Positions 48,894-63,253 of a DNA stretch of 64,000 bases are shown here, piece by piece. Under the pieces are notes generated by a model. It was not told the DNA's origin, made no database searches, and was given only the letters and a program-made list of their open reading frames with translations. Where the stretch lies: the NCBI GenBank assembly GCA_022822855.1, contig JAJDYG010000030.1, positions 161-64,160 on the forward strand, read 5' to 3'. A program made the translations under genes and the position numbers. Source of the DNA: Dehalococcoidia bacterium. Its GTDB lineage: Bacteria; Chloroflexota; Dehalococcoidia; Bin125. Each line of letters opens with the position of its first letter. The stretch's first letter is position 1.

Positions 48894-48906
48894 AGGATGA
48901 GCTCAC

Positions 48907-49107
48907 ATGCCGAAAGTGAGGGACGCAATCAGATTCGTCGAGAGTGATGGATGGGTGATCGATCGCATGCGCGGTAGCCATCGAATGTTCCCGCATCCAA
49001 CGAAACCAGGCGAGGTGGTGATTCCTGGGCACCCCTCCAAGGATCTTCGCGTGAAGACGTGGCGGAGTATCCTGAGGCAGGCCGGCTTGAGGGAGGAAAG
49101 ACGATGA
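48907..49107 (+). CDS. hicA: type II toxin HicA family
   Basis: GW...RGSH (catalytic His)...VVIPGH...ILRQAG. Confidence 0.9.
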   Translation: MPKVRDAIRFVESDGWVIDRMRGSHRMFPHPTKPGEVVIPGHPSKDLRVKTWRSILRQAGLREERR

Positions 49108-49433
49108 AGCTGCAGTACGCCGTGGTCTTTGAGCGGGCCCCGAACAACTACTGCGCGTACATTCCCGACATTCCCGGTTGCATCGCTGCTGACGACACGC
49201 TCGAGGGCACGAGAACGATGATGCGAGAGGCGATCGAGTTCCTCTTCGAGACGAAGCAGGAACGGGGCGAGCCGATTCCGATGCCGACTATGAACGTGCT
49301 GGAGGCCATGGCCTATCACGCCTCGGACCTGGACGACGTGACGGATGCAGACTTTGGGTCCGGCTACGAGGCGACTGTGGCGTTAGTGGAGGTCGAGCTG
49401 GCGCCGGGCGCGGCTGAGGCGGCCGGTGGCTAA
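49104..49433 (+). CDS. hicB: type II antitoxin HicB family
   Basis: YAVVFE...YCAYIPDIPGC...T.E...EAI; ATGA overlap with hicA. Confidence 0.88.
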   Translation: MKLQYAVVFERAPNNYCAYIPDIPGCIAADDTLEGTRTMMREAIEFLFETKQERGEPIPMPTMNVLEAMAYHASDLDDVTDADFGSGYEATVALVEVELAPGAAEAAGG

Positions 49434-49448
49434 CCGCACGGTCTCAGT

Positions 49449-49478
49449 TTGACCCTGATTGCACCGCGCGGGTACGAT
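49449..49478 (+). promoter_or_regulatory. sigma70-type promoter for the nuo operon
   Basis: TTGACC-N18-TACGAT. Confidence 0.6.
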
Positions 49479-49534: not shown

Positions 49535-49924
49535 GTGTCTGAGCTGTTTGAGAACTACGGCGCCGTCCTGGTCGCGATTCCCGTCGGGATCATGCTGGTC
49601 CTGACCGCGCTGCTGGCGACCAAGCTGCTCGCCCCGCAGCGACGCACCGCGCTGAAGGGTCAGGTGTACGAGTGCGGCATGCTGCCGATTGGGCGCAACT
49701 GGGCCCAGGTCCACGTCCGCTACTACACCTATGCGCTGCTCTTTCTCGTCTTCGACGTGGAGGTCGTCTTTCTCTTCCCCTGGGCCGTCTCCTTCCTCGG
49801 ACTGATGGGCGAGCCCGACTGGGGCAAGGTCATCCTCTGGCAGATGGTGCTCTTCATCGGCACGCTGCTGATCGCGCTGGCCTACGCCTGGCGCAAGGGC
49901 GTCTTCGACTGGCAACGGAACTAA
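49535..49924 (+). CDS. nuoA: NADH-quinone oxidoreductase subunit A
   Basis: YECG, YY.YALLFLVFDVE, FPWA, YAWRKG. Confidence 0.95.
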   Translation: MSELFENYGAVLVAIPVGIMLVLTALLATKLLAPQRRTALKGQVYECGMLPIGRNWAQVHVRYYTYALLFLVFDVEVVFLFPWAVSFLGLMGEPDWGKVILWQMVLFIGTLLIALAYAWRKGVFDWQRN

Positions 49925-49948
49925 CGGAACACGGAGCGAGAGGGCCGC

Positions 49949-50533
49949 ATGACGACCTCCCAGCCACCACACATGATTGATCCCGGAGGCGATCCGACGC
50001 CGGTGATCATCTCGCCCGAGTCGCTTCGTCTGCAGGCGATTGACGACGCTCCGCCGACCGTTCCCTACAAGGTTGTGTTGCCGGGCGTCATGCAGGCTCC
50101 GGCCGAGGCATTGATCTCGGCTGCGCGCAAGTCTTCGCTCTGGCCGATGACCTTTGGTCTGGCCTGCTGCGCGATCGAAATGATCGCCACCTATATGGCC
50201 AACCACGACCTCGACCGCTTCGGCATCGTGCCCTGGCCCTCGCCGCGACAGTCGGACGTGATGATCGTGGCCGGCACCGTAACCAAGAAGATGGCCCCGG
50301 CGGTCAAGCTGCTCTATGAGCAGATGCCGCATCCCAAATGGGTGATTTCGATGGGCGCCTGCGCGACCAACGGCGGGCCGTACACGCAGTACGACCGCGT
50401 GGTCCAGGGCGTCGACAACATCGTGCCGGTCGACGTCTACGTGCCCGGCTGCCCGCCCCGTCCGGAAGCCCTGATCGACGGTCTGCTGGCTCTGCAGGAG
50501 AAGATCGTCGAGGAACGGGCACGGGGTTACTAA
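49949..50533 (+). CDS. nuoB: NADH-quinone oxidoreductase subunit B
   Basis: [28 protein letters not shown] (N2 ligands intact). Confidence 0.97.
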
Positions 50534-50539
50534 ACCGCC

Positions 50540-51541
50540 ATGACATCACGTCGCACGCCGGCCGCGCTCGAGGAACCGCCGAGTAACGAACCGCCTCCCG
50601 GTTCGATTGCCGACACCTACCGCGAGGTCATGCCGTTGGTCGACTTCGACGCGGCCATGACCAAGGGCGACGACGTGGCGTTGACGATTCCCGCCGACTC
50701 GATCCATGAAGTGCTCGAACGGGGCCGCGACGACGAGCGCCTGCAGATGAACCTGCTTCGCAATCAGACTGCGGTCGACTGGGAAGATCGCGGGCTGGAG
50801 ATCGTCTATCACCTCTACTCGATTCCTCTGCGCCAGGCCGTGACGATCAAGTCCTGGCTGCCATCGGAGGGCGCCGTCGTCGAGTCGATCACCGACATCT
50901 ACGAAATGGCCAACTGGGCCGAACGCGAATGTCGGGAGATGTTCGGGATCGAGTTCATCGGTCATCCCGACCCGCGCAATCTGTTGCTCGACGAAGACCT
51001 CGATATCCATCCGCTGCGCAAGAGCCATCCGCTCGCGCCGATCGAGATGGAGCAGGGCGTCGACGTCGAGTTCTTCACCAAGCAATACCCGCCGCCGGAA
51101 CCCGAGGAAGAAGAAGCGGCGGCGCCCGAAGCCGCCGCCGCTGCCGCGCCCGAGCGCAAGCGGCTTGAGGACATGACCGAAGAGGAACGCGAAGAGCGGC
51201 GGGCCGAGCAGGCCGAACGCGTCGCTCGGGCTCGCGAACTCGCGGCCGTCCGTCGAGCCGAGCGTCTGGCGGGCGCGCCGCCTGCCGGCGGTCCGCGACC
51301 GGAAGGCGCGGCTCCGCCGCCGCCTCCCGCAGCGCCCGCTGCAGCTCCAGCCGCCGCCGAGCCAGCGCCGTCCAGCGCACCGGCCCAGGACGACCGACCG
51401 CCGGCGCCTCCGCCGCCGGAATTGCCGACCATCCCCGACGCCGAAGAAGACCCCGAGGGCCGTGCCGCCGCGCAGGCCGAGCGGGTCCGACTCGGCCGCG
51501 AGCTGGCCGCCGCCAGGCGAGCCCAATTGCGCGGCGAATAG
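50540..51541 (+). CDS. nuoC: NADH-quinone oxidoreductase subunit C with long C-terminal extension
   Basis: TAVD, VYHL, ANWAERECREMFGI.F.GHPD, HPLRK. Confidence 0.92.
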   Translation: MTSRRTPAALEEPPSNEPPPGSIADTYREVMPLVDFDAAMTKGDDVALTIPADSIHEVLERGRDDERLQMNLLRNQTAVDWEDRGLEIVYHLYSIPLRQAVTIKSWLPSEGAVVESITDIYEMANWAERECREMFGIEFIGHPDPRNLLLDEDLDIHPLRKSHPLAPIEMEQGVDVEFFTKQYPPPEPEEEEAAAPEAAAAAAPERKRLEDMTEEEREERRAEQAERVARARELAAVRRAERLAGAPPAGGPRPEGAAPPPPPAAPAAAPAAAEPAPSSAPAQDDRPPAPPPPELPTIPDAEEDPEGRAAAQAERVRLGRELAAARRAQLRGE

Positions 51542-51605
51542 TCGGCCGTTCGTTGGTCAGCGGGGCTGACCGCAGCAACGAGACGAGGAGCAGGGAGTAG
51601 ACCGC

Positions 51606-52769
51606 ATGGTCCAGCAGACCTTTGAAGGTGAAGTACTCACTGAACCCGTCGTCGTCGAGCGCGAGTTCGAGACGGTCGACATGAACATCAACATCGGGCC
51701 GCAGCACCCGGCGACGCACGGCGTGTTCCGGATGGTGCTGACCGTTGACGGAGAGATCGTCAAGGACGCCATCCCATACATCGGCTACATGCACCGAGGC
51801 GGCGAGAAGCTCTCCGAGAATCTCGACTACCGCGGCGCGCTGGGTTACCAGGACCGTACCGACTACCTGGCCGCGTTCAACTCCGAGTGGGTCTACGTCA
51901 ACGCCGTCGAGCGGCTGGCGGGCATCGAAATCCCCGAGCGGGCCGAGTACGTCCGCCTGATCCTGGCCGAGTTCAACCGCCTGCTCTCGCACTTCATGTT
52001 CATGGGCGCGTTCGGCACCGACGTCGGCTATTTCGGAACCGCCTTCACCTGGACGTTCAAGGAACGCGAACGGATCCAGGATCTGTTTGAGGCGGTCTGC
52101 GGCGACCGGATTATGTACAACTACTTCCGAGTCGGCGGACTGGCCTGGGAGCCGCACGAGACCTTCATCGAGGATTCGCACTGGGTGCTCGACCAGGTCG
52201 AGGTCGGAATCGGCGACGTAGACGACCTGATGACCAACAACGAGGTCTTTGTCGCCCGCTGCCGCGACGTGGGCGCGATGACAGCTGACGAGGCGATCTC
52301 CTACGGCGTCACCGGTCCCATGCTGCGAGCCTCGGGCGTGCCCTTCGACCTGCGGGTCGACGAGCCCTACTCGATCTACGACCGCTTCCACTGGGAGATC
52401 CCGGTGGGCGAGCGCGGTGATGTCTACGACCGCTACCTCGTGCGCCTTGAAGAGATGCGGCAATCGGTCACGATCCTGCGCCAGGCGCTGGATCAGATGC
52501 CGACCTCGGGGCCGATCGAGCCGGAGCGGATGCCCGCGCGGCTGCGCCCGGCGCCCGGCGAAATCTACATGCGCCAGGAGAATCCGCGCGGCGAATACGG
52601 GATCTACATGGTCTCGGACGGCACCGACAAGCCGTGGCGCGTCAAGATGCGCTCACCATGCTTCCACAACCTGTCGGCGCTCAAGCCGCAGGTGATCAAC
52701 ACCTACCTCGCGGACGCGGTCGTAGCGCTCGGTTCGATCGACATCGTGCTCTGCGAGGTCGACCGCTGA
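51606..52769 (+). CDS. nuoD: NADH-quinone oxidoreductase subunit D
   Basis: GPQHPATHGV, GYMHRG.EK, DRTDY, TGPMLRASG, ENPRGE, EVDR. Confidence 0.97.
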   Translation: MVQQTFEGEVLTEPVVVEREFETVDMNINIGPQHPATHGVFRMVLTVDGEIVKDAIPYIGYMHRGGEKLSENLDYRGALGYQDRTDYLAAFNSEWVYVNAVERLAGIEIPERAEYVRLILAEFNRLLSHFMFMGAFGTDVGYFGTAFTWTFKERERIQDLFEAVCGDRIMYNYFRVGGLAWEPHETFIEDSHWVLDQVEVGIGDVDDLMTNNEVFVARCRDVGAMTADEAISYGVTGPMLRASGVPFDLRVDEPYSIYDRFHWEIPVGERGDVYDRYLVRLEEMRQSVTILRQALDQMPTSGPIEPERMPARLRPAPGEIYMRQENPRGEYGIYMVSDGTDKPWRVKMRSPCFHNLSALKPQVINTYLADAVVALGSIDIVLCEVDR

Positions 52770-52798
52770 TGCGGACTGAACAAGAGGTTTGCCAGGCA

Positions 52799-52838
52799 CC
52801 CCCCTCAGCCTTCGGCAGCTCCCCCCAGAGGGGGGAGC
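52799..52838. repeat. palindromic repeat family A copy between nuoD and nuoH
   Basis: cccccctcagccttcggcagctccccccagaggggggagc. Confidence 0.75.
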
Positions 52839-52918
52839 GAGAGGGTGAGCTGATGGGCGTAAGCCGGATCGCGTGTAACCTGCGTGAGCAGCGCCAACAG
52901 GCAGCGGGGATGCGCTAA

Positions 52919-54127
<1,209 letters not shown>

Positions 54128-54160
54128 CAGAGCAGCTAGCAGAGGAAGAGGAGCAACCGC

Positions 54161-54679
54161 GTGGAGGACGGCGTCACCGCGACTCAGGTGGTGTTCTGGA
54201 TCCTGGCCGTGGTCATGCTGGTCTCAGCGATCGGCGTGGTCACCGCGGGCAACATCGTCTATGCGGCGTTGTTCTTCATCGCCTCGCTCGCCGGAGTCGC
54301 CGGCATCTACCTGATCCTCACGGTCGAGTTCATCGCCCTCGTCCAACTGCTGATCTACGGCTCCGCCGTCGTGATCCTGATTCTCTTCGCGCTCATGCTC
54401 ACGCGAGCCCGCGAGCGACCCCAGGCGTTGTTCGGACGCTCGCGGCCGCTCGGTATCGCCGCCTCGCTCGGCCTGTTGGCCGCGCTGATCGGCGGAATCG
54501 TCGCCACGACCTGGACCACTCCCGAATCTTCCTCGGCGATACAGCCGGTCGGCCTGCAAGCGATCGGCGATGCGATCTTCACGATCTGGATCGTGCCCTT
54601 CATCATCGTCGGCGTGCTGCTCTCGATCGCCCTGGACGGCGCGATCATGCTCGCCTCACCTGATGAGGACGACAACTGA
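54161..54679 (+). CDS. nuoJ: NADH-quinone oxidoreductase subunit J
   Basis: Five TMs, EFIALVQLLIYG.A. Confidence 0.92.
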   Translation: MEDGVTATQVVFWILAVVMLVSAIGVVTAGNIVYAALFFIASLAGVAGIYLILTVEFIALVQLLIYGSAVVILILFALMLTRARERPQALFGRSRPLGIAASLGLLAALIGGIVATTWTTPESSSAIQPVGLQAIGDAIFTIWIVPFIIVGVLLSIALDGAIMLASPDEDDN

Positions 54680-54993
54680 TGCCGCCGCTTGACCACATTC
54701 TGATCGTCAATGCGGTGCTCTTCGCGATCGGCGCGATGGGTGTCCTTACGCGCCGTAACGCGGTATTGATCCTGCTCTCGGTCGAGCTGATGCTCAACGC
54801 CGTCTCGCTCAACATGGTCGCCTTTGCCGTCTACGGACACGTCGATTTCGGCAACATCACGGGGATCATCTTCGCCTTCTTCATCATCGTCATCGCCGCG
54901 GCCGAGGTCGCGCTGGCGCTGGGCATCGTCGTGCGGACCTTCCGCAACCGGGCCACCGCCAACGTCGACGAAGTGAATCTCCTCAAGTGGTAA
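54679..54993 (+). CDS. nuoK: NADH-quinone oxidoreductase subunit K
   Basis: RRN...SVELMLN, AAAEVA. Confidence 0.95.
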   Translation: MPPLDHILIVNAVLFAIGAMGVLTRRNAVLILLSVELMLNAVSLNMVAFAVYGHVDFGNITGIIFAFFIIVIAAAEVALALGIVVRTFRNRATANVDEVNLLKW

Positions 54994-55009
54994 CCGGGAG
55001 CATGCAGCA

Positions 55010-56944
55010 ATGATCTGGGCTGACCACGCGTGGATTCTGCCGGCGATCCCGGCCCTCTCCTTCGTCGTGCTGTTCCTGTTCGGCCGTAAGCTGCCGCGCG
55101 GCGGCGACTTCATCTCGGTCGGCGCGGCGCTGGCCGTGTTCGTGCTCTTCTTCTTCGTGTTGGAGTCTCACCTCGACTGGCTCGGCGCGGGACTCGGCGG
55201 GATTCGCAACGTCGGCACCGACTGGATCAACTTCGACAGTTTCGTCGTCCGGCTTGGTTTCACCGTCGACTCGATTGCGATGGTGATGGTCTTCGTCGTC
55301 GCCACGGTGGCGCTGATGGTCAATATCTATTCGACCAACTATCTGCGTCATCACGGCAAGCCCGAGCCTCGGTACTGGTGGTACTTCGCCGTGCTCTCGC
55401 TGTTCGTGGCGATGATGCTGACCCTCGTCCTGGCCGACAACCTCTTGCTCATGTTCGTGGCCTGGGAGGGCGTGGGCCTCTGCTCCTTCCTCCTGATCGG
55501 CTTCTACTACGAGCGCCGCTCGGCGGTCGAGGCGGCCAAGAAGGCGTTCGTCACCACGCGACTGGGGGATGTCGGCCTGTTCATCGGCATCATCCTCTTC
55601 TGGCGCGCGACCGGCTCCTTCCAAATTTCCGACATCATCGCCGCCGCCGAGGCGGGCCGCGTCAATGACCTGCCGCAGGTCATGGGCGACGGCTACCTGA
55701 CGCTCTCGACCCTGATGCTTTTCCTCGGCGCAGCGGGCAAGTCGGCGCAGGTGCCGTTCCACGTCTGGCTGCCCGACGCGATGGAAGGCCCGACCCCGGT
55801 CTCCGCGCTGATCCACGCGGCCACGATGGTCGTCGCCGGCGTCTACCTGGTCGCCAGGCTGCTGCCGGTCTTCGAAGTCACCCCGGGCGCGTCCAACGTG
55901 GTGCTCGCGGTCGGCCTGACAACCGCGCTGCTCGCCGGCATGATGGCGCTCGCCCAGAACGACATCAAGCGAGTGCTCGCCTATTCCACGGTGTCGCAGC
56001 TGGGATTCATGTTCGTCGCCCTGGGGGTCGGCGCCGTCGGCATTGCCATGTTCCATCTACTCACGCACGCCTTCTTCAAAGCCTGCCTCTTCCTCGGCTC
56101 GGGATCCGTGATCCACATGACAGAGGAGCAGGACGCTCGCAAGCTGGGCGGCCTCTGGTGGCGGATGCCGGTCACGGCTTCCACGTTCATCATCTCCTCG
56201 GTCGCGCTGGCCGGTATCCCGCCGCTATCCGGGTTCTTCTCCAAGGACGAGATCTTCCTCGCCACGATCGGCGGCGCGAACACGGCGGTGGCAATCCTGC
56301 TCGGTGTGGCCGCCTTCCTTTCGGCGCTCTATATGGCCCGGCTGGTGATCATCACCTTCTTCGGTCCGCCCAAGGACATGGCCGTGATCAAGCGCGCTCG
56401 CGAGGCCGCCCCGACGATCCTGATTCCGCTGGTCTTCCTGACCGTCCTCACCTTCCTGGTCGGCTTCGTCGCCTTCGACCAGGTCGGCGACGCGCTCGGG
56501 TTCCCGGGCGGGATCAACAACTACGTCTATTTCCCCGAACCGCACGACTTCCACTTCTCCAACTCGATCGCCGCCGTCACCGGCACCGTCTCGCTGCTCG
56601 GCTTCCTGACCGCATGGTGGTTCTTCTGGGGCCGCAACTCCCACCGCGCGCAGGCGGTGCGTGAATTCCAGCCGCGACTGGCCGCCGTGATCGAGAACAA
56701 GTTCTACTTCGACGAGGCCTACCAGTGGGGCATCGACCGAGCCATGCTGCCGCTGGCCCGGATCGTCGCCTGGTTCGACCGCATGATCGTCAACGACACC
56801 GGGATCAACGCCCCGGCCGACGCGACGCGCTATGCCGCCTACTGGCTGCGCTACCACGTCACCGGACGGATTCCCGACTACGCGCTGCTCATGGTCGTCG
56901 GCGTCGCCCTTGCGGGCGGCCTCGCCTTCCTGCTGCGCGGCTAA
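55010..56944 (+). CDS. nuoL: NADH-quinone oxidoreductase subunit L
   Basis: WEGVGLCS.LLIGF, GKSAQ.P..WLPDAMEGPTPVSALIHAATMV, HAFFKA, FFSKDEI. Confidence 0.97.
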   Translation: MIWADHAWILPAIPALSFVVLFLFGRKLPRGGDFISVGAALAVFVLFFFVLESHLDWLGAGLGGIRNVGTDWINFDSFVVRLGFTVDSIAMVMVFVVATVALMVNIYSTNYLRHHGKPEPRYWWYFAVLSLFVAMMLTLVLADNLLLMFVAWEGVGLCSFLLIGFYYERRSAVEAAKKAFVTTRLGDVGLFIGIILFWRATGSFQISDIIAAAEAGRVNDLPQVMGDGYLTLSTLMLFLGAAGKSAQVPFHVWLPDAMEGPTPVSALIHAATMVVAGVYLVARLLPVFEVTPGASNVVLAVGLTTALLAGMMALAQNDIKRVLAYSTVSQLGFMFVALGVGAVGIAMFHLLTHAFFKACLFLGSGSVIHMTEEQDARKLGGLWWRMPVTASTFIISSVALAGIPPLSGFFSKDEIFLATIGGANTAVAILLGVAAFLSALYMARLVIITFFGPPKDMAVIKRAREAAPTILIPLVFLTVLTFLVGFVAFDQVGDALGFPGGINNYVYFPEPHDFHFSNSIAAVTGTVSLLGFLTAWWFFWGRNSHRAQAVREFQPRLAAVIENKFYFDEAYQWGIDRAMLPLARIVAWFDRMIVNDTGINAPADATRYAAYWLRYHVTGRIPDYALLMVVGVALAGGLAFLLRG

Positions 56945-56987
56945 CGGCCAGTTGGCGAAGAGAACGAGATAGAGAGAGGCGCACAGC

Positions 56988-58508
56988 GTGGACGCAGGCG
57001 AAGCACTCCTCCTGCTCTTGCTGATCCCCGGGGCAGCCATGCTGCTCACGATCCTCGTGCCCTCCAGGCACGCCGACGTCGTGCGTTGGATCGCGTTGGT
57101 CGCCACGACCGCCACGTTGATCGACTCGATCTGGATCTTCGCCGTCTACGACTTCGCCGAGGGCGGCTACCAGTTCAACCTCCAGTACCCGTGGATTGAG
57201 AACATCGCGTTCCTCGGCGAGAACGGCATCTCGCTGCATCTCGCCGTCGACGGCATCGCCGCGCCGATGGTCCTGCTCAACGGACTGGTCGGTTTCGCCG
57301 GTGTGCTCGTTTCGTGGAAGATCACGCATCGGGTGAAGGACTTCTTCATCCTCTTCATGGCGCTGTTCACCGGCGTCTACGGCGTGTACATCGGCCAGGA
57401 CCTGTTCTTCTGGTTCTTCGCCTACGAGCTCGCCGTGTTGCCCATGTACCTGCTGATCGTGATCTGGGGCTCGACCAACAAGGAATACGGCGCGATGAAG
57501 CTGACCATGGTCCTGGTCGGCGGCTCGGTGCTGATCTTCATCGGCATCTTCGCCGTCTTCGCCGAGGCCGGCGCCGGCACCTTCGACATGGCCGTCCTGC
57601 GCGAGATCGAATTCGGCCGCGGCTTCGCCAACACCTTCTTCCCCTTCTTCATGATCGGCTGCGGCATCCTGGCCGGCCTCTTCCCCTTCCATACTTGGTC
57701 GCCCGACGGCCACGTGGCCGCTCCAACCGCGGTCTCGATGCTCCACGCCGGGGTCTTGATGAAGCTGGGCGCCTTCGGCATCATCCGCCTGGGCATGGAG
57801 ATCCTGCCCGCCGGCACCGACTTCTGGATGCCCGTGCTGCTCGTGCTGGGCGGCGTCGCCGCTGTCTATGGGGCGATCTCGGCCATCCACCAGACCGACC
57901 TCAAGTTCGTGATCGGTTACTCGTCCGTCTCCCACATGGGCTTCGTCCTGATGGGTCTGGGCACGATGAACAACATCGGCGTCAACGGCGCCGTGCTGCA
58001 GATGTTCTCGCACGGTGTGATGACCGCCCTCTTCTTCGCCATGGTCGGCGGACTCTACGACCAGGCGCACACGCGCGATATCCGCGTCTTCGGCGGACTC
58101 GTGCGCAAGATGCCGCTGTTCGTGATCTTCTTCGGCATCGCCGGCCTGACCTCGCTCGGCTTACCCGGACTGTCGGGATTCGTGGCCGAGTTCCACATCT
58201 TCGTCGGCACGATCGACACGTTCCCGCTGTTCGCCGCGCTGGGCATCCTCTCGGCCGCGCTGACCGCCATCTACGTGCTGCGGCTGATGGGCCGCGCCGC
58301 GCTGGGTCCGTTCAACCCGCGCTGGGAGAACCTGAAGGATCTCACTCGCTGGGAGATCGCCGCAGCCATCGTGCTGATCGCGCCGATCATCGCCATGGGT
58401 ATCTGGCCCGACCCGTTCATTGACCGGATCGCGCCCACCGTGGCGGAACTGCCGAAGATTGATCAGATCGGCGGGCTGTTCACACTCAGCTCGCTGACCG
58501 GACGGTGA
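56988..58508 (+). CDS. nuoM: NADH-quinone oxidoreductase subunit M
   Basis: YE...PMY, PFHTW.PD.H, GVLMKLG, YSSVSHMG, LGLPG.SGFVAEF. Confidence 0.95.
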   Translation: MDAGEALLLLLLIPGAAMLLTILVPSRHADVVRWIALVATTATLIDSIWIFAVYDFAEGGYQFNLQYPWIENIAFLGENGISLHLAVDGIAAPMVLLNGLVGFAGVLVSWKITHRVKDFFILFMALFTGVYGVYIGQDLFFWFFAYELAVLPMYLLIVIWGSTNKEYGAMKLTMVLVGGSVLIFIGIFAVFAEAGAGTFDMAVLREIEFGRGFANTFFPFFMIGCGILAGLFPFHTWSPDGHVAAPTAVSMLHAGVLMKLGAFGIIRLGMEILPAGTDFWMPVLLVLGGVAAVYGAISAIHQTDLKFVIGYSSVSHMGFVLMGLGTMNNIGVNGAVLQMFSHGVMTALFFAMVGGLYDQAHTRDIRVFGGLVRKMPLFVIFFGIAGLTSLGLPGLSGFVAEFHIFVGTIDTFPLFAALGILSAALTAIYVLRLMGRAALGPFNPRWENLKDLTRWEIAAAIVLIAPIIAMGIWPDPFIDRIAPTVAELPKIDQIGGLFTLSSLTGR

Positions 58509-60070
58509 CACTGATGGACCTCGAATATCAGCTGATCATCCCCGAATTCGTCATGGCCGGCCTGGCCGTGCTAGTCATCGCCGCTGCATTGGCGTTCCGA
58601 AACGTCGACCAGAAGTGGTTCGGCTACGCCACGGCGGCGGCGCTGGCCGTGATCGCCGTCGTGACAGCCGTCGCCTACTGGAACACCAACGACGACTTCG
58701 GCGGAGTACTCGCCGTCGACCACTTCACGGTCTTGTTCCGAGTCTTTTTCCTCGGCATCGCCTTCTTCACGGTGATGGCGGCCGTCCAGTTCGCCGGCGA
58801 CCGACTCAAGAATCACGCCGAGTTCTACGGCCTGATCGTCTTCGCCACGCTCGGGATGATGCTGCTCGCCGCCTCGCGCGAGTTGCTGACCGCGTACCTC
58901 TCGCTCGAGCTGCTCTCGTTCAGCTTCTACATCCTGGTCGGCTTCAACAAGCTCAACCCCTTCTCCAACGAGGGTTCGCTCAAGTACATGCTGCTCGGTG
59001 CGTTCTCTTCGGCGCTGATGCTCTACGGGATCTCCCTGATCTACGGCGTCACCGGGACGACCACCTACTCCGCCATCGGCCCCGACGTCGTCGAGGGCAC
59101 GCGCAACATCGCCGGACAGCTCGCCTCGTTCGCCGGAGGCAGCGGCGGCGTTGACCCCGACGGCGCGCGACCCGGCCTCCTGATCGGCCTGGTCCTGATC
59201 ACCGCCGGACTCGGCTTCAAGGTCTCGGCCGTGCCCTTCCACCAGTGGACGCCTGACGCCTACCAGGGCGCGCCGCTGCCGATCACCGCGTTCCTCAGCG
59301 CCGGCGGCAAGGCCGCCGCCTTCGCCTTCTTCCTGCGGCTCTTCTCCGAGGCCTTCCTGCCCGCCGCCGCCGAGTGGGTCTGGTTCGTCGGCATCCTCGC
59401 CGCCGTCACCATGATCGTCGGCAACCTGATGGCGCTGCAGCAGACCAACTTCAAGCGACTGATGGCCTATTCCTCCATCTCGCAGGTCGGCTATCTGCTT
59501 GTCGGTATCGTCGCGCTCGACGCGGCCAACATCACGCAGTCTCAGGACGCCGCCTCAGCCCTGGTCTTACATCTGATCGGCTATGTGACGACCAATATCG
59601 CCGTGTTCGCCGCGATCATTGCGTTCTACAACCGAACCGGCCGCGACGACATCGTCGACCTGCGCGGCCTGGCCGAGCGTCAACCGTTCCTCGCCTTTGC
59701 GATTGCGGCAGCGCTGTTCTCGTTAGCCGGAATGCCGCTCTTCGCCGGATTCGCGACCAAGTTCATCATTTTCCAGGCAGCCTTCAACAACGGTTTCCTC
59801 TGGCTCGGAGCAATCGGCGTCACCGCCTCCTTCGTCTCCCTCTACTACTACCTGATGGTGATCAAGCAGATGTACCTGTACGAGCCCGAAGGTTCCGACC
59901 GGGCCCGCTTCCACGTCTCGCGCCCGCTGGCCGGAGCGCTGGTGGTGCTGGTCGCCGGCGTCCTCTTTATCGGCCTGTACCCGACGCCGCTGTTCGACGT
60001 GATTCACAGCTCGACCGAGGGTCTCTTCGAGCAGGCCGCTGCCTTGTCGGCGGCAGTGGTGGGCGGATAG
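58505..60070 (+). CDS. nuoN: NADH-quinone oxidoreductase subunit N
   Basis: LELLS, E..LKY, FKVSAVPFH.W.PD.YQGAP, KRLMAYSSI, LAGMP..GF..K. Confidence 0.96.
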   Translation: MTLMDLEYQLIIPEFVMAGLAVLVIAAALAFRNVDQKWFGYATAAALAVIAVVTAVAYWNTNDDFGGVLAVDHFTVLFRVFFLGIAFFTVMAAVQFAGDRLKNHAEFYGLIVFATLGMMLLAASRELLTAYLSLELLSFSFYILVGFNKLNPFSNEGSLKYMLLGAFSSALMLYGISLIYGVTGTTTYSAIGPDVVEGTRNIAGQLASFAGGSGGVDPDGARPGLLIGLVLITAGLGFKVSAVPFHQWTPDAYQGAPLPITAFLSAGGKAAAFAFFLRLFSEAFLPAAAEWVWFVGILAAVTMIVGNLMALQQTNFKRLMAYSSISQVGYLLVGIVALDAANITQSQDAASALVLHLIGYVTTNIAVFAAIIAFYNRTGRDDIVDLRGLAERQPFLAFAIAAALFSLAGMPLFAGFATKFIIFQAAFNNGFLWLGAIGVTASFVSLYYYLMVIKQMYLYEPEGSDRARFHVSRPLAGALVVLVAGVLFIGLYPTPLFDVIHSSTEGLFEQAAALSAAVVGG

Positions 60071-60195: not shown

Positions 60196-61545
60196 TTACA
60201 GCACCGCGAGATATCGGCGCAGCTCGTAGTCCGTGACCTGCGAGCGGTACTCGTCCCACTCAAGCAGCTTGTTCTGCAGCACCGTCGACCAGACGTACTC
60301 GCCCAGCACGCTCTTCATCAGCTCGGATGTCGAGAAGGCGTCGATCGCCCGGCCCTGGGTCGTGGGCATCTCGACGATGTTGCGGGCCATGCGCTGCGCC
60401 GGGGTGAGTTCGAAGACGTTGTCCTCGGCCGCCGGCGGCGGAGTGAGGCCTTCGTCGATGCCCTGCAATCCGGCCGCGAGGAAGGCTGAGAAGGCCAGGT
60501 ATGGGTTGGTCGCCGAGTCCGCGCCTCGGTACTCGAGCCGGGTCGACTCGGAATCGCCCGGCTCATAGTCAGGGATTCGCACCAGGTCGGACTGGTTGGC
60601 GTGCGACCAGGTCAGGTAGACGGGAGCCTCGGTGCCCGGCGCGAGGCGCTTGTAGCTGTTCGACCATTGGTTGGTGATCAGCGTGAACTGCGGCGTGTAG
60701 GCGAGCAGGCCGGCGAGGAATGAGCGGGCGATCTCCGAGAGTCCGCCGCCTTCTTCGTAGAAGAGGTTCTGCTCGTGGTCGAACAGCGAGAGGTAGACAT
60801 GCATCCCCGAGCCGTTGACGCCGTTGAGCGGCTTGGGCATGAAGGTGGCGTGGACGCCCTGCTTGATCGCCACCTCCTTGACCACCAGGCGCGTCGTCAT
60901 CACCTGGTCGGCCATCGTCAGCGCGTCGGTATAGCGCAGGTCGATCTCGTGCTGCGAGGGCGCCGCCTCGTGGTGCGACGACTCCACGCCGATGCCCATC
61001 TCCTCCAGCGTCAGGACCGTTTCGCGACGCAGATCGGTGGCCGTGTCCAGCGGCGAGAGGTCGAAGTAGCCGCCGGAGTCCAGTGGCGAGGGGTCGTCGG
61101 GCGCGCGGAAGTAGAAGTACTCGATCTGCGGGGCGACGTAGAAGGTGTAGCCGCGCTGCTGGGCCGACTCGAGCTGCCGGCGCAGGATCCTGCGCGGGTC
61201 GCCCTCGAACGGCTCGCCGTTGCGCCGGTAGATGTCGCAGATCATCCGCGCCACGCGGTGTTGTTGCGGACGCCAGGGCAGGACGACGAAGGTGTCGGGG
61301 TCGGGCCGCGCCACCATGTCCGACTCGTCGTGGCGGGCGAACCCCTCGATCGAGGCACCGTCGAACTCGACGCCCTTTTCCAGCGCTCCGGGCAACTCGT
61401 CGATCGTGATCGCGACCGACTTCAATTGCCCCAGCAGGTCGGTGAACCAGAGCCGCACGAAGCGGACATCATGCTCGCGGCAAGCATTGAGAACATGCTG
61501 ATGCTCACTGGGTGGAGCGTTGAGGTCAGCGTCGAGGGTGGTCAT
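60196..61545 (-). CDS. glutamine synthetase-like protein (GSI-alpha type) with altered catalytic residues
   Basis: FDGASIEGF..ESDM, HHEAAPSQHEI, TFMPKP..NGSGMH, NSYKRL, RLEYR, NPYLA; but PQIE and NQS instead of PE.E and NRS. Confidence 0.9.
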   Translation of the reverse strand: MTTLDADLNAPPSEHQHVLNACREHDVRFVRLWFTDLLGQLKSVAITIDELPGALEKGVEFDGASIEGFARHDESDMVARPDPDTFVVLPWRPQQHRVARMICDIYRRNGEPFEGDPRRILRRQLESAQQRGYTFYVAPQIEYFYFRAPDDPSPLDSGGYFDLSPLDTATDLRRETVLTLEEMGIGVESSHHEAAPSQHEIDLRYTDALTMADQVMTTRLVVKEVAIKQGVHATFMPKPLNGVNGSGMHVYLSLFDHEQNLFYEEGGGLSEIARSFLAGLLAYTPQFTLITNQWSNSYKRLAPGTEAPVYLTWSHANQSDLVRIPDYEPGDSESTRLEYRGADSATNPYLAFSAFLAAGLQGIDEGLTPPPAAEDNVFELTPAQRMARNIVEMPTTQGRAIDAFSTSELMKSVLGEYVWSTVLQNKLLEWDEYRSQVTDYELRRYLAVL

Positions 61546-61563
61546 GATGCTTGCAGTTCCCCG

Positions 61564-61717
61564 CTTCCCCCCTCTGGGGGGAAGCTCCCGCGTAGCGGGT
61601 GAAGGGGGGTCTGCCCCGCGCTAGTCGACGGGCCCCCCGCAGCCTTCGGCATCTCCCCCCAGAGGGGGGAGAGATGAATCGATCCGACATCTCCCCCGCC
61701 GGAGCGGGGGGAGATGG
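61564..61717. repeat. three family-A palindromic copies between the two GS genes
   Basis: cttcccccctctggggggaag..., ccccccgcagccttcggcatctccccccagaggggggaga, catctcccccgccggagcggggggagatg. Confidence 0.8.
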
Positions 61718-61726
61718 AATCGCACC

Positions 61727-63145
61727 CTAGATGTGGTAGTAGTGGAAGAACTCCGCCGCGACCGGGTGCATGAAGACATCCCGGGCCTCGGTCAGCTTGA
61801 AGTCCTGGTACTCGTCGATCAGGTCCTGGGTGAAGACCCCGCCTTCCATCAGGAAGTCGTGGTCGTCGGCCAGCGCCTGCAGCGAGCCCTCGAGCGAGTG
61901 CGGCACCGAGGGGATGCCGGCCGCTTCCTCGGCGCTCAGCTCGTAGATGTCGGTGTCGACCGGGTCGTCCGGCTCGATCTGGTTGCGGATGCCGTCCAGG
62001 CCGGCCATCAGCATCGCCGAGAAGGCCAGGTAGGTGTTGGCCGAGGCGTCGGGCGGTCGGAACTCGATCCGCTTGCTGTTGGGCGAGGTCTCGTAGGTCG
62101 GGATCCGGACCGCCGCCGAGCGGTTGCGCTGTGAGAAGGCCAGGTAGATCGGCGCTTCGAAGCCGGGCACCAGTCGCTTGTAGGAGTTGGTCGTCGGCGC
62201 GCAGAAGGCGAGCAGGGCGGAGCCGTGCTTGAGCAGGCCGCCGATGTAGTGGCGGGCGGTATCGGACAGCTCGGCGTACTTGCCCGCCTCGTAGAAGAGC
62301 GGGGCGCCGTCCTTCCACAGCGACTGGTGGCAATGCATGCCAGTGCCGTTGTCGCCGTAGAGCGGCTTGGGCATGAAGGTCGCCGACTTGCCGTGCGCCT
62401 TGGCCACGTTGCGGACGATGTGCTTGTACCACTGGGTCTCGTCGGCCTTGGTGCGCAGCGTGTTGAAGCGCGTGGCGATTTCGCCCTGGCCGCCGGTCGC
62501 GACCTCGTGGTGATGGACTTCCAGCTCCATCCCGACTGCTTCCATCGCGTCGGCCATCTCCCAGCGAATGTCGCTCAGGGTGTCGAACGGCGCGGTCGGC
62601 GAGTAGCCCTGCTTGGGCGGAATCTTGTAGCCGAGGTTGCTCTCGTCCTCGTCGCGGCCGCTGTTCCAGTCGGCCTCGTCCGACTCCACGACATAGAAGG
62701 CCTGGTTGATCGACATCTGGAACTGGACGTGGTCGAACATGAAGAATTCGAGCTCGGGACCGAAGAAGGCCTGGTCGGCGATGCCCGAGTCGACCATGTG
62801 CTGTTCTGCCTTGGTCGCGACGTAGCGCGGGTCGCGGCTATAGCGGTCGCCGGTCACCGGGTCGTGAACGTCGCAGATGAACTTCAGCGTCGGCACGTTC
62901 TCGGTCGGGTCGATCCGGGCCGTGTCGAGATCCGGTCGAAGCAGCATGTCCGACTCGTCGATGCTCTGGAAGCCGCGCAGCGAGGAGCCGTCGAAGCCCT
63001 GGCCGCGGTTGACCAGGTCCTCATCGACCTTGGATGCGGGAATGCTGAAATGCTGCCAGCGGCCGATCAGGTCGGTCACCAACAGGTCGACGCGCCGAAT
63101 GCCCTGATCCTGGATCAGCGCCTGGATGTCGCCAAGGGTTGCCAT
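61727..63145 (-). CDS. glnA: type I glutamine synthetase (GSI-beta)
   Basis: FDGSSLRGFQSIDESDM, GPELEFF, HHHEVA, FMPKP.YGDNGTGMHCHQS, NRSAAVRIP, RIEFR, adenylylation-site Tyr in DIYEL. Confidence 0.97.
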   Translation of the reverse strand: MATLGDIQALIQDQGIRRVDLLVTDLIGRWQHFSIPASKVDEDLVNRGQGFDGSSLRGFQSIDESDMLLRPDLDTARIDPTENVPTLKFICDVHDPVTGDRYSRDPRYVATKAEQHMVDSGIADQAFFGPELEFFMFDHVQFQMSINQAFYVVESDEADWNSGRDEDESNLGYKIPPKQGYSPTAPFDTLSDIRWEMADAMEAVGMELEVHHHEVATGGQGEIATRFNTLRTKADETQWYKHIVRNVAKAHGKSATFMPKPLYGDNGTGMHCHQSLWKDGAPLFYEAGKYAELSDTARHYIGGLLKHGSALLAFCAPTTNSYKRLVPGFEAPIYLAFSQRNRSAAVRIPTYETSPNSKRIEFRPPDASANTYLAFSAMLMAGLDGIRNQIEPDDPVDTDIYELSAEEAAGIPSVPHSLEGSLQALADDHDFLMEGGVFTQDLIDEYQDFKLTEARDVFMHPVAAEFFHYYHI

Positions 63146-63208
63146 GGGCTTGTGCCTCTCTATCTCTCTTCGTGCTGCACGGTGGTCGGGGCCGGTTGGT
63201 CTCGCACG

Positions 63209-63253
63209 CAGGCGCATTCACCTGACTTTGGGCGATGCAGGCGCATTCGCCTG
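63209..63253. promoter_or_regulatory. two 16-bp palindromes upstream of glnA (candidate operators or tandem RNA hairpins)
   Basis: caggcgcattcacctg (63209-63224) and caggcgcattcgcctg (63238-63253). Confidence 0.55.

Follow-up and report, generated by a model that had tools for sequence, protein, structure and literature searches.

The complex I-like operon considered here lies in a 64,000-nucleotide stretch of DNA (the window) from contig JAJDYG010000030.1 of the Dehalococcoidia bacterium assembly GCA_022822855.1, and consists of only ten genes, ordered nuoA-B-C-D-H-J-K-L-M-N, for which an earlier note made from the letters alone envisaged a possibly undescribed proton-pumping architecture. 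Our analyses favour a more familiar solution, namely that the operon and a stand-alone nuoI gene on another contig (C2) of the same genome very probably encode, as judged from sequence, an ordinary 11-subunit quinone-reducing proton pump rather than a 10-subunit design. What the locus shows is a rearrangement, shared by the whole family, of the genes for a known type of enzyme, and dispersed nuo genes have been published before. The operon (49535-60070) is made up of ten open reading frames (ORFs) on the + strand, each of them matching best the Nuo family expected from its place in the order:

49535-49924, + strand: nuoA, 129 aa, by family score
49949-50533, + strand: nuoB, 194 aa, with the N2 cysteine motifs ACC, GAC and GCPP in the translation
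50540-51541, + strand: nuoC, 333 aa, core domain at residues 49-166 followed by a long Ala/Pro-rich C-terminal tail
51606-52769, + strand: nuoD, 387 aa, with the motifs HPATHG and DRTDY
52919-54127, + strand: nuoH, 402 aa, by family score
54128-54160, + strand: the 33-bp nuoH-nuoJ gap, the position of nuoI in orthologous operons of other families
54161-54679, + strand: nuoJ, 172 aa, by family score
54679-54993, + strand: nuoK, 104 aa, by family score
55010-56944, + strand: nuoL, 644 aa, by family score
56988-58508, + strand: nuoM, 506 aa, by family score
58505-60070, + strand: nuoN, 521 aa, by family score

What the earlier note had described of the operon itself proved accurate, including the gene order, the intact NuoB ligands of cluster N2, the quinone-site motifs of NuoD and the spacing of nuoH from nuoJ and from nuoD (149 bp in the latter case); a six-frame scan, indeed, found no CxxCxxCxxxC motif anywhere in the window. 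NuoB scores 227 bits against TIGR01957 (cut-off 142.7), and all seven family matches of NuoD are of complex I or Fpo types (NuoD/NdhH/FpoD) with none from hydrogenases, which makes it a complex I-type protein and not the large subunit of a NiFe-hydrogenase. A nuoI remnant or fusion inside the window was rejected, given the lack of motifs and the fact that NuoH matches only NuoH/FpoH families.

However, nuoI and nuoEFG are missing from the window only and not from the genome that holds it (G000; 42 contigs, 95% complete). A search of G000 with the TIGR01971 profile yielded two full-length NuoI-like genes, both standing apart from the nuo operons; the genome-wide search that the note had called for also recovered genes of the NuoEFG type, and tblastn with the window proteins revealed a second nuo operon, so that each core nuo gene is present exactly twice:

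G000:C2:38539-39084: nuoI, 181 aa, after a scoA/scoB pair
G000:C26:85603-86088: nuoI, 161 aa, immediately following a second nuoB
G000:C26:84844-90510: nuoB-nuoI and a NuoG-like gene, the latter of 874 aa and 1.8 kb downstream of nuoI
G000:C38:66315-68839: nuoE-nuoF, with no other nuo gene nearby
G000:C40:60975-70641: second operon, nuoA-C-D-H-J-K-L-M-N, without nuoB and nuoI

The C2 gene is an ordinary stand-alone nuoI, the very case that the note itself had named as speaking against a new architecture, and of the two options offered there the relocation of nuoI is the one borne out. The gene-order comparison with related Dehalococcoidia likewise points in this direction. Outside the family, orthologues of the window operon carry nuoI between nuoH and nuoJ in all six loci read (G025, G027, G029, G030, G034 and G039), a slot from which it is absent throughout the present family, and the best match of these in-operon NuoI proteins is the C2 NuoI (52% in G034, 50% in G039, 46% in G025, 39% in G027 and 35% in G029). 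The in-operon nuoI of G030 is frameshifted, and this copy, together with that of G026, was placed by coordinates and trees, the other five being whole ORFs.

Phylogenetic trees of NuoI (24 rows), NuoD (22), NuoH (22) and NuoB (25, inferred by a quick rather than the careful method) all display the same two-way split, and the C2 NuoI falls on the window-operon side of the NuoI tree (100/99 for the split). The C2 NuoI clade was kept in a tree of 33 rows with a Shimodaira-Hasegawa-like approximate likelihood ratio test (SH-aLRT) value of 99, the displaced copies of seven genera forming one clade (100), and forcing the displaced proteins together with the C26-type NuoIs was rejected by the approximately unbiased test (p-AU 3.7e-5). 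The NuoI trees were built without G038, which had no match of at least 90 aa, and the 33-row tree also without four same-genus rows. By sequence comparison, these results show the C2 gene to be a descendant of the nuoI that other families keep in the H-J interval of their orthologous operon.

The relocated gene is well preserved. In the alignment, where the row of G039 showed the C-terminal tail only and was ignored, the C2 NuoI retains all eight cysteines, both CxxCxxCxxxC motifs and the long type-specific loop between them. The ratio of nonsynonymous to synonymous substitutions (dN/dS) of C2-type nuoI is 0.068 (7 sequences, 21 pairs), which lies within the range of the operon genes (B 0.020, D 0.033, H 0.049, C 0.092) and thus indicates purifying selection. 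An orthologue occurs in 62 of the 65 genomes of the order, all belonging to one family, and in all 55 high-quality ones, the three genomes without it being 66-84% complete. A hand tally of the 62 genomes puts it and the window-type nuoH on separate contigs in 27 cases; in the other 35 the two share a contig but lie 110 kb or more apart.

The note had further suggested that the displaced nuoI might be fused to, or located together with, a donor module. This does not hold for the C2 gene, which is unfused and has no other nuo gene within at most 5 kb on either side in any of 42 orthologous loci; an arrangement of this kind does exist on C26, where nuoB-nuoI lie near the NuoG-like gene, but it pertains to the second set of genes. 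In the genus and its closest relatives, the neighbours among the 42 loci are a CoA-transferase pair (scoA in 34, scoB in 36), a divergent CaiB-like gene (38) and short-chain dehydrogenases (39), while in more distant genera a fumarate reductase-like cluster and thioredoxin-like and ABC-transporter-like genes were recognized by eye from translations. Since the neighbours change between genera, no conserved donor module stands beside the gene, and an adjoining input module was rejected as a candidate. The octamer GCTAYYCT is found 24-47 nt before the start of C2-type nuoI in each of the 41 loci for which upstream DNA is available, be the gene preceded by scoAB or not (background 0.0004 per 70 nt; the pattern was derived from 17 of these 41 loci, which are kin), hinting at a -10 element of the gene's own.

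Several observations weigh against assigning the C2 protein to the window operon as its ordinary NuoI. The central split of the tree is a point at which long branches come together, and the stem branch of the displaced NuoI measures 0.84, compared with 0.40 for NuoD, 0.55 for NuoH and 0.18 for NuoB. The C2 NuoI reaches 83 bits against a TIGR01971 cut-off of 113; the in-operon NuoIs of G025, G034, G039, G029 and G027 likewise stay below the cut-off (86-103 bits). Moreover, the basic loop of the sister NuoIs (KRRK, KRRK, TRKR and SRRK, with DRRK in G039) has the sequence NHKS in the relocated copy found in this genus, and the donor-facing or partner surface of the protein may thus have changed.

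Structure prediction is consistent with the 11-subunit enzyme. The predicted complex of NuoB, NuoD and the C2 NuoI scored 0.83 as opposed to 0.56 for the best control, with agreement between runs of at least 96% and a partner predicted local distance difference test (pLDDT) value of at least 84; the mark for the complex score is reached by 51 of 78 solved pairs and 2 of 108 mismatched ones, and a pass can reflect resemblance to the known complex I structures and does not discriminate between the two NuoI paralogues as binding partners. Complex I couples electron transfer to quinone with proton pumping by the membrane arm, and the same function may be presumed for the enzyme discussed here. In the scenario we favour, nuoI would have moved out of the operon a single time, in the family's ancestor, taking along or acquiring a promoter of its own and later landing beside differing neighbours. 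Its product would dock on NuoB and NuoD in the usual manner, electrons would pass from the donor through the two [4Fe-4S] clusters of NuoI to N2 and on to quinone, and protons would be pumped by NuoL, M, N, H, J, K and A.

The C26 nuoI, along with the second nuoB and the NuoG-like gene, is assigned by the same comparisons to the second operon (C40) and not to the window operon. In the genomes with a complete C40-type operon (G027, G029, G037, G038 and G040), the operon's own NuoB and NuoI match best the C26 pair. In all eight loci read that hold a C26-type nuoI, a NuoG-like gene lies beside or near it. G025, G030 and G039 possess a C40-type operon that is already split, with nuoI beside a NuoG-like gene, and G034 has the same I-G pair; as the split is found in these three other families, it predates the loss of nuoI from the window operon. 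The synteny of the G-like gene with the other NuoI suggests an NADH-fed enzyme, and the C40 operon, the C26 nuoB-nuoI with the NuoG-like gene and the C38 nuoE-nuoF likely constitute a dispersed 14-subunit complex I. The NuoEFG-type genes of G000 comprise one dispersed set for two cores, with the E-F part on C38 and the G-like part on C26, none being in the window operon. A separate NuoEF-like gene on C37 adjoins a formate dehydrogenase-like gene.

Neither of the family's two complex I operons contains nuoI, and both nuoI genes have promoter-like sites of their own, a layout that lends itself to other interpretations. We regard it as improbable that NuoI serves as a regulated, exchangeable input adaptor, either gating assembly or allowing a ferredoxin-facing and a NuoG-docking NuoI to be swapped on one membrane arm, perhaps with the twin-repeat tail of NuoC as a tether for the donor. 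Slimmer still is the chance of mix-and-match isoenzymes, with both NuoIs (and both NuoBs) interchangeable between the membrane arms and the separately regulated nuoI genes switching the electron input, the C26 NuoI bringing in the NuoG-like/NuoEF module and the C2 NuoI a ferredoxin input. The arrangement of the nuoI genes just mentioned would fit such an exchange, as would the single N-module-like set for two cores, a situation raised as a possibility for Syntrophobacter in PMC4453560, but the two NuoIs share only 33% identity, congruent trees show each of them following its respective operon type throughout the class, and the same source describes subunit recombination between complex I clades as rare.

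A true 10-subunit enzyme, in which a soluble carrier would hand electrons straight to the N2 cluster of NuoB and the C2 protein would have some other role, was the novel alternative of the earlier note and would have been a surprise; the data leave it almost no room. The operon itself is devoid of nuoI, and the somewhat long stem branch and altered loop of the C2 NuoI could be read in its favour, but a cognate nuoI that groups with the operon is maintained in every high-quality genome of the order, under purifying selection like that on the operon genes, and its product is predicted, by likeness to solved structures, to dock on this NuoB and NuoD. Finally, an assembly collapse deleting nuoI between nuoH and nuoJ, conceivable in a 42-contig assembly that is 95% complete, can be counted as refuted, because nuoH is followed directly by nuoJ in all 15 orthologous loci read from the family (6 + 9), single-contig genomes included, and single contigs bridge the junction in three of four runs (X2, X3 and X4, all three from one study), the piece from the fourth, X5, having fewer than 31 letters on one side of it. 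The best DNA matches come from sponge metagenomes; no RNA data set was among the matches listed, which speaks neither for nor against expression.

Regarding the electron donor of the 11-subunit complex, we give reduced ferredoxin or flavodoxin about an even chance. A ferredoxin-type donor is our first guess because a 2-oxoacid:ferredoxin oxidoreductase domain is encoded on C36 and small ferredoxin-motif ORFs also occur in G000; such a donor has been proposed for Desulfitobacterium (PMC11238625). Sharing of the dispersed NuoE-F and NuoG-like module is a more tentative option, and the rest of our estimate goes to some other donor. Input by an FpoF/FqoF-type subunit was rejected, there being no match to PF04432 (FrhB family) in the 95%-complete G000, while controls matched in 4 of 14 cases.

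Complexes of eleven subunits are widespread, with Chloroflexi among their carriers, and it is common for the genes of complex I to be scattered over two or three clusters (PMC3144371). The present system shares with them the eleven subunit families and an operon without nuoEFG, but differs in that nuoI is stand-alone family-wide and in that NuoC carries a C-terminal twin-repeat tail, in contrast to the N-terminal NuoC extension described there for Bacillaceae. For metagenome-assembled genomes of Acidobacteria, the supplement of Hausmann et al. 2018 (PMC6018796) lists nuoB and nuoI apart from the nuoACDHJKLMN operons; there, too, iron-sulfur genes of the Q-module are encoded elsewhere, and the layout is that of the C40 operon, whereas the window operon, from a different phylum, keeps nuoB and lacks nuoI only. 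According to Spero et al. 2015 (PMC4453560), 86% of the genomes that encode the enzyme have their nuo genes colocalized, two isozymes occur in ~3%, and in one genome a single nuoEFG serves two cores. Two divergent sets in one genome and dispersal as a minority pattern are thus known, although the survey was of enzymes with 14 subunits and is older than the genomes analysed here, in which both sets are split. The 12-subunit F420H2 dehydrogenase (Fpo/Fqo) is similar in joining 11 core subunits to a non-NADH input, but for its FpoF subunit the PF04432 search of this 95%-complete genome gave no match.

In the literature searched, which left subscription journals mostly outside, we found no description of the exact nuo layout of this family. 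Chadwick et al. reportedly dealt in 2018 with unusual complex I homologues, and this work may bear on layouts in Chloroflexota. With scoring based on operons, the two complex I sets of this Dehalococcoidia family would be mistaken for incomplete ones. The trees link every displaced nuoI (and nuoB) to the operon it belongs to, so that a single cell has one enzyme of 11 subunits and another of probably 14. The locus does not advance the question of what feeds 11-subunit complexes, and its importance reaches little beyond annotation.

The NuoC tail of the window operon (~150 aa, Ala/Pro-rich) contains two repeats, and similar tails occur across genera of the family:

51212-51259, + strand: copy 1, 16 residues, Arg/Ala/Glu-rich
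51476-51523, + strand: copy 2, 16 residues, Arg/Ala/Glu-rich

NuoC extensions have been suggested in PMC3144371 to contact the partner of the complex, and the tail may possibly act as a donor tether. In sister families with the same operon type, similar repeated tails are found on NuoC (G025) or on NuoI (G039 and G029).

Among the genes of the second set, the C26 NuoG-like protein has extra cysteines past an N5-like motif, two ferredoxin-type motifs, and no cysteine at the positions aligned with CTRLC of the C37 formate dehydrogenase-like protein. B, I and G are directly adjacent in G030. The C38 nuoF is long (651 aa): it is extended at the N-terminus, and its C-terminal part includes a ferredoxin-like stretch that is partly degenerate. 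Only one genome has a third nuoH-nuoI pair (G018:C51:987-2357), the NuoI of which sits on a long branch; bin contamination is the probable source.

A generic scan of the operon for promoters and terminators remained at chance level, the region containing 2 sigma70-like sites against 1.3 expected, one of them 5' of nuoA:

49449-49478, + strand: sigma70-like promoter match TTGACC-18-TACGAT, weak and a consensus match only

Directly 5' of nuoA (within 48903-49433), a short HicB-like ORF at 49059-49433 on the + strand was called by eye, and the content of this gap varies among relatives. On the other side, two glutamine synthetase-like genes in tandem (window 60196-63217, - strand) converge with nuoN, and a glnA-like gene also lies 3' of the operon in G025 and G030.

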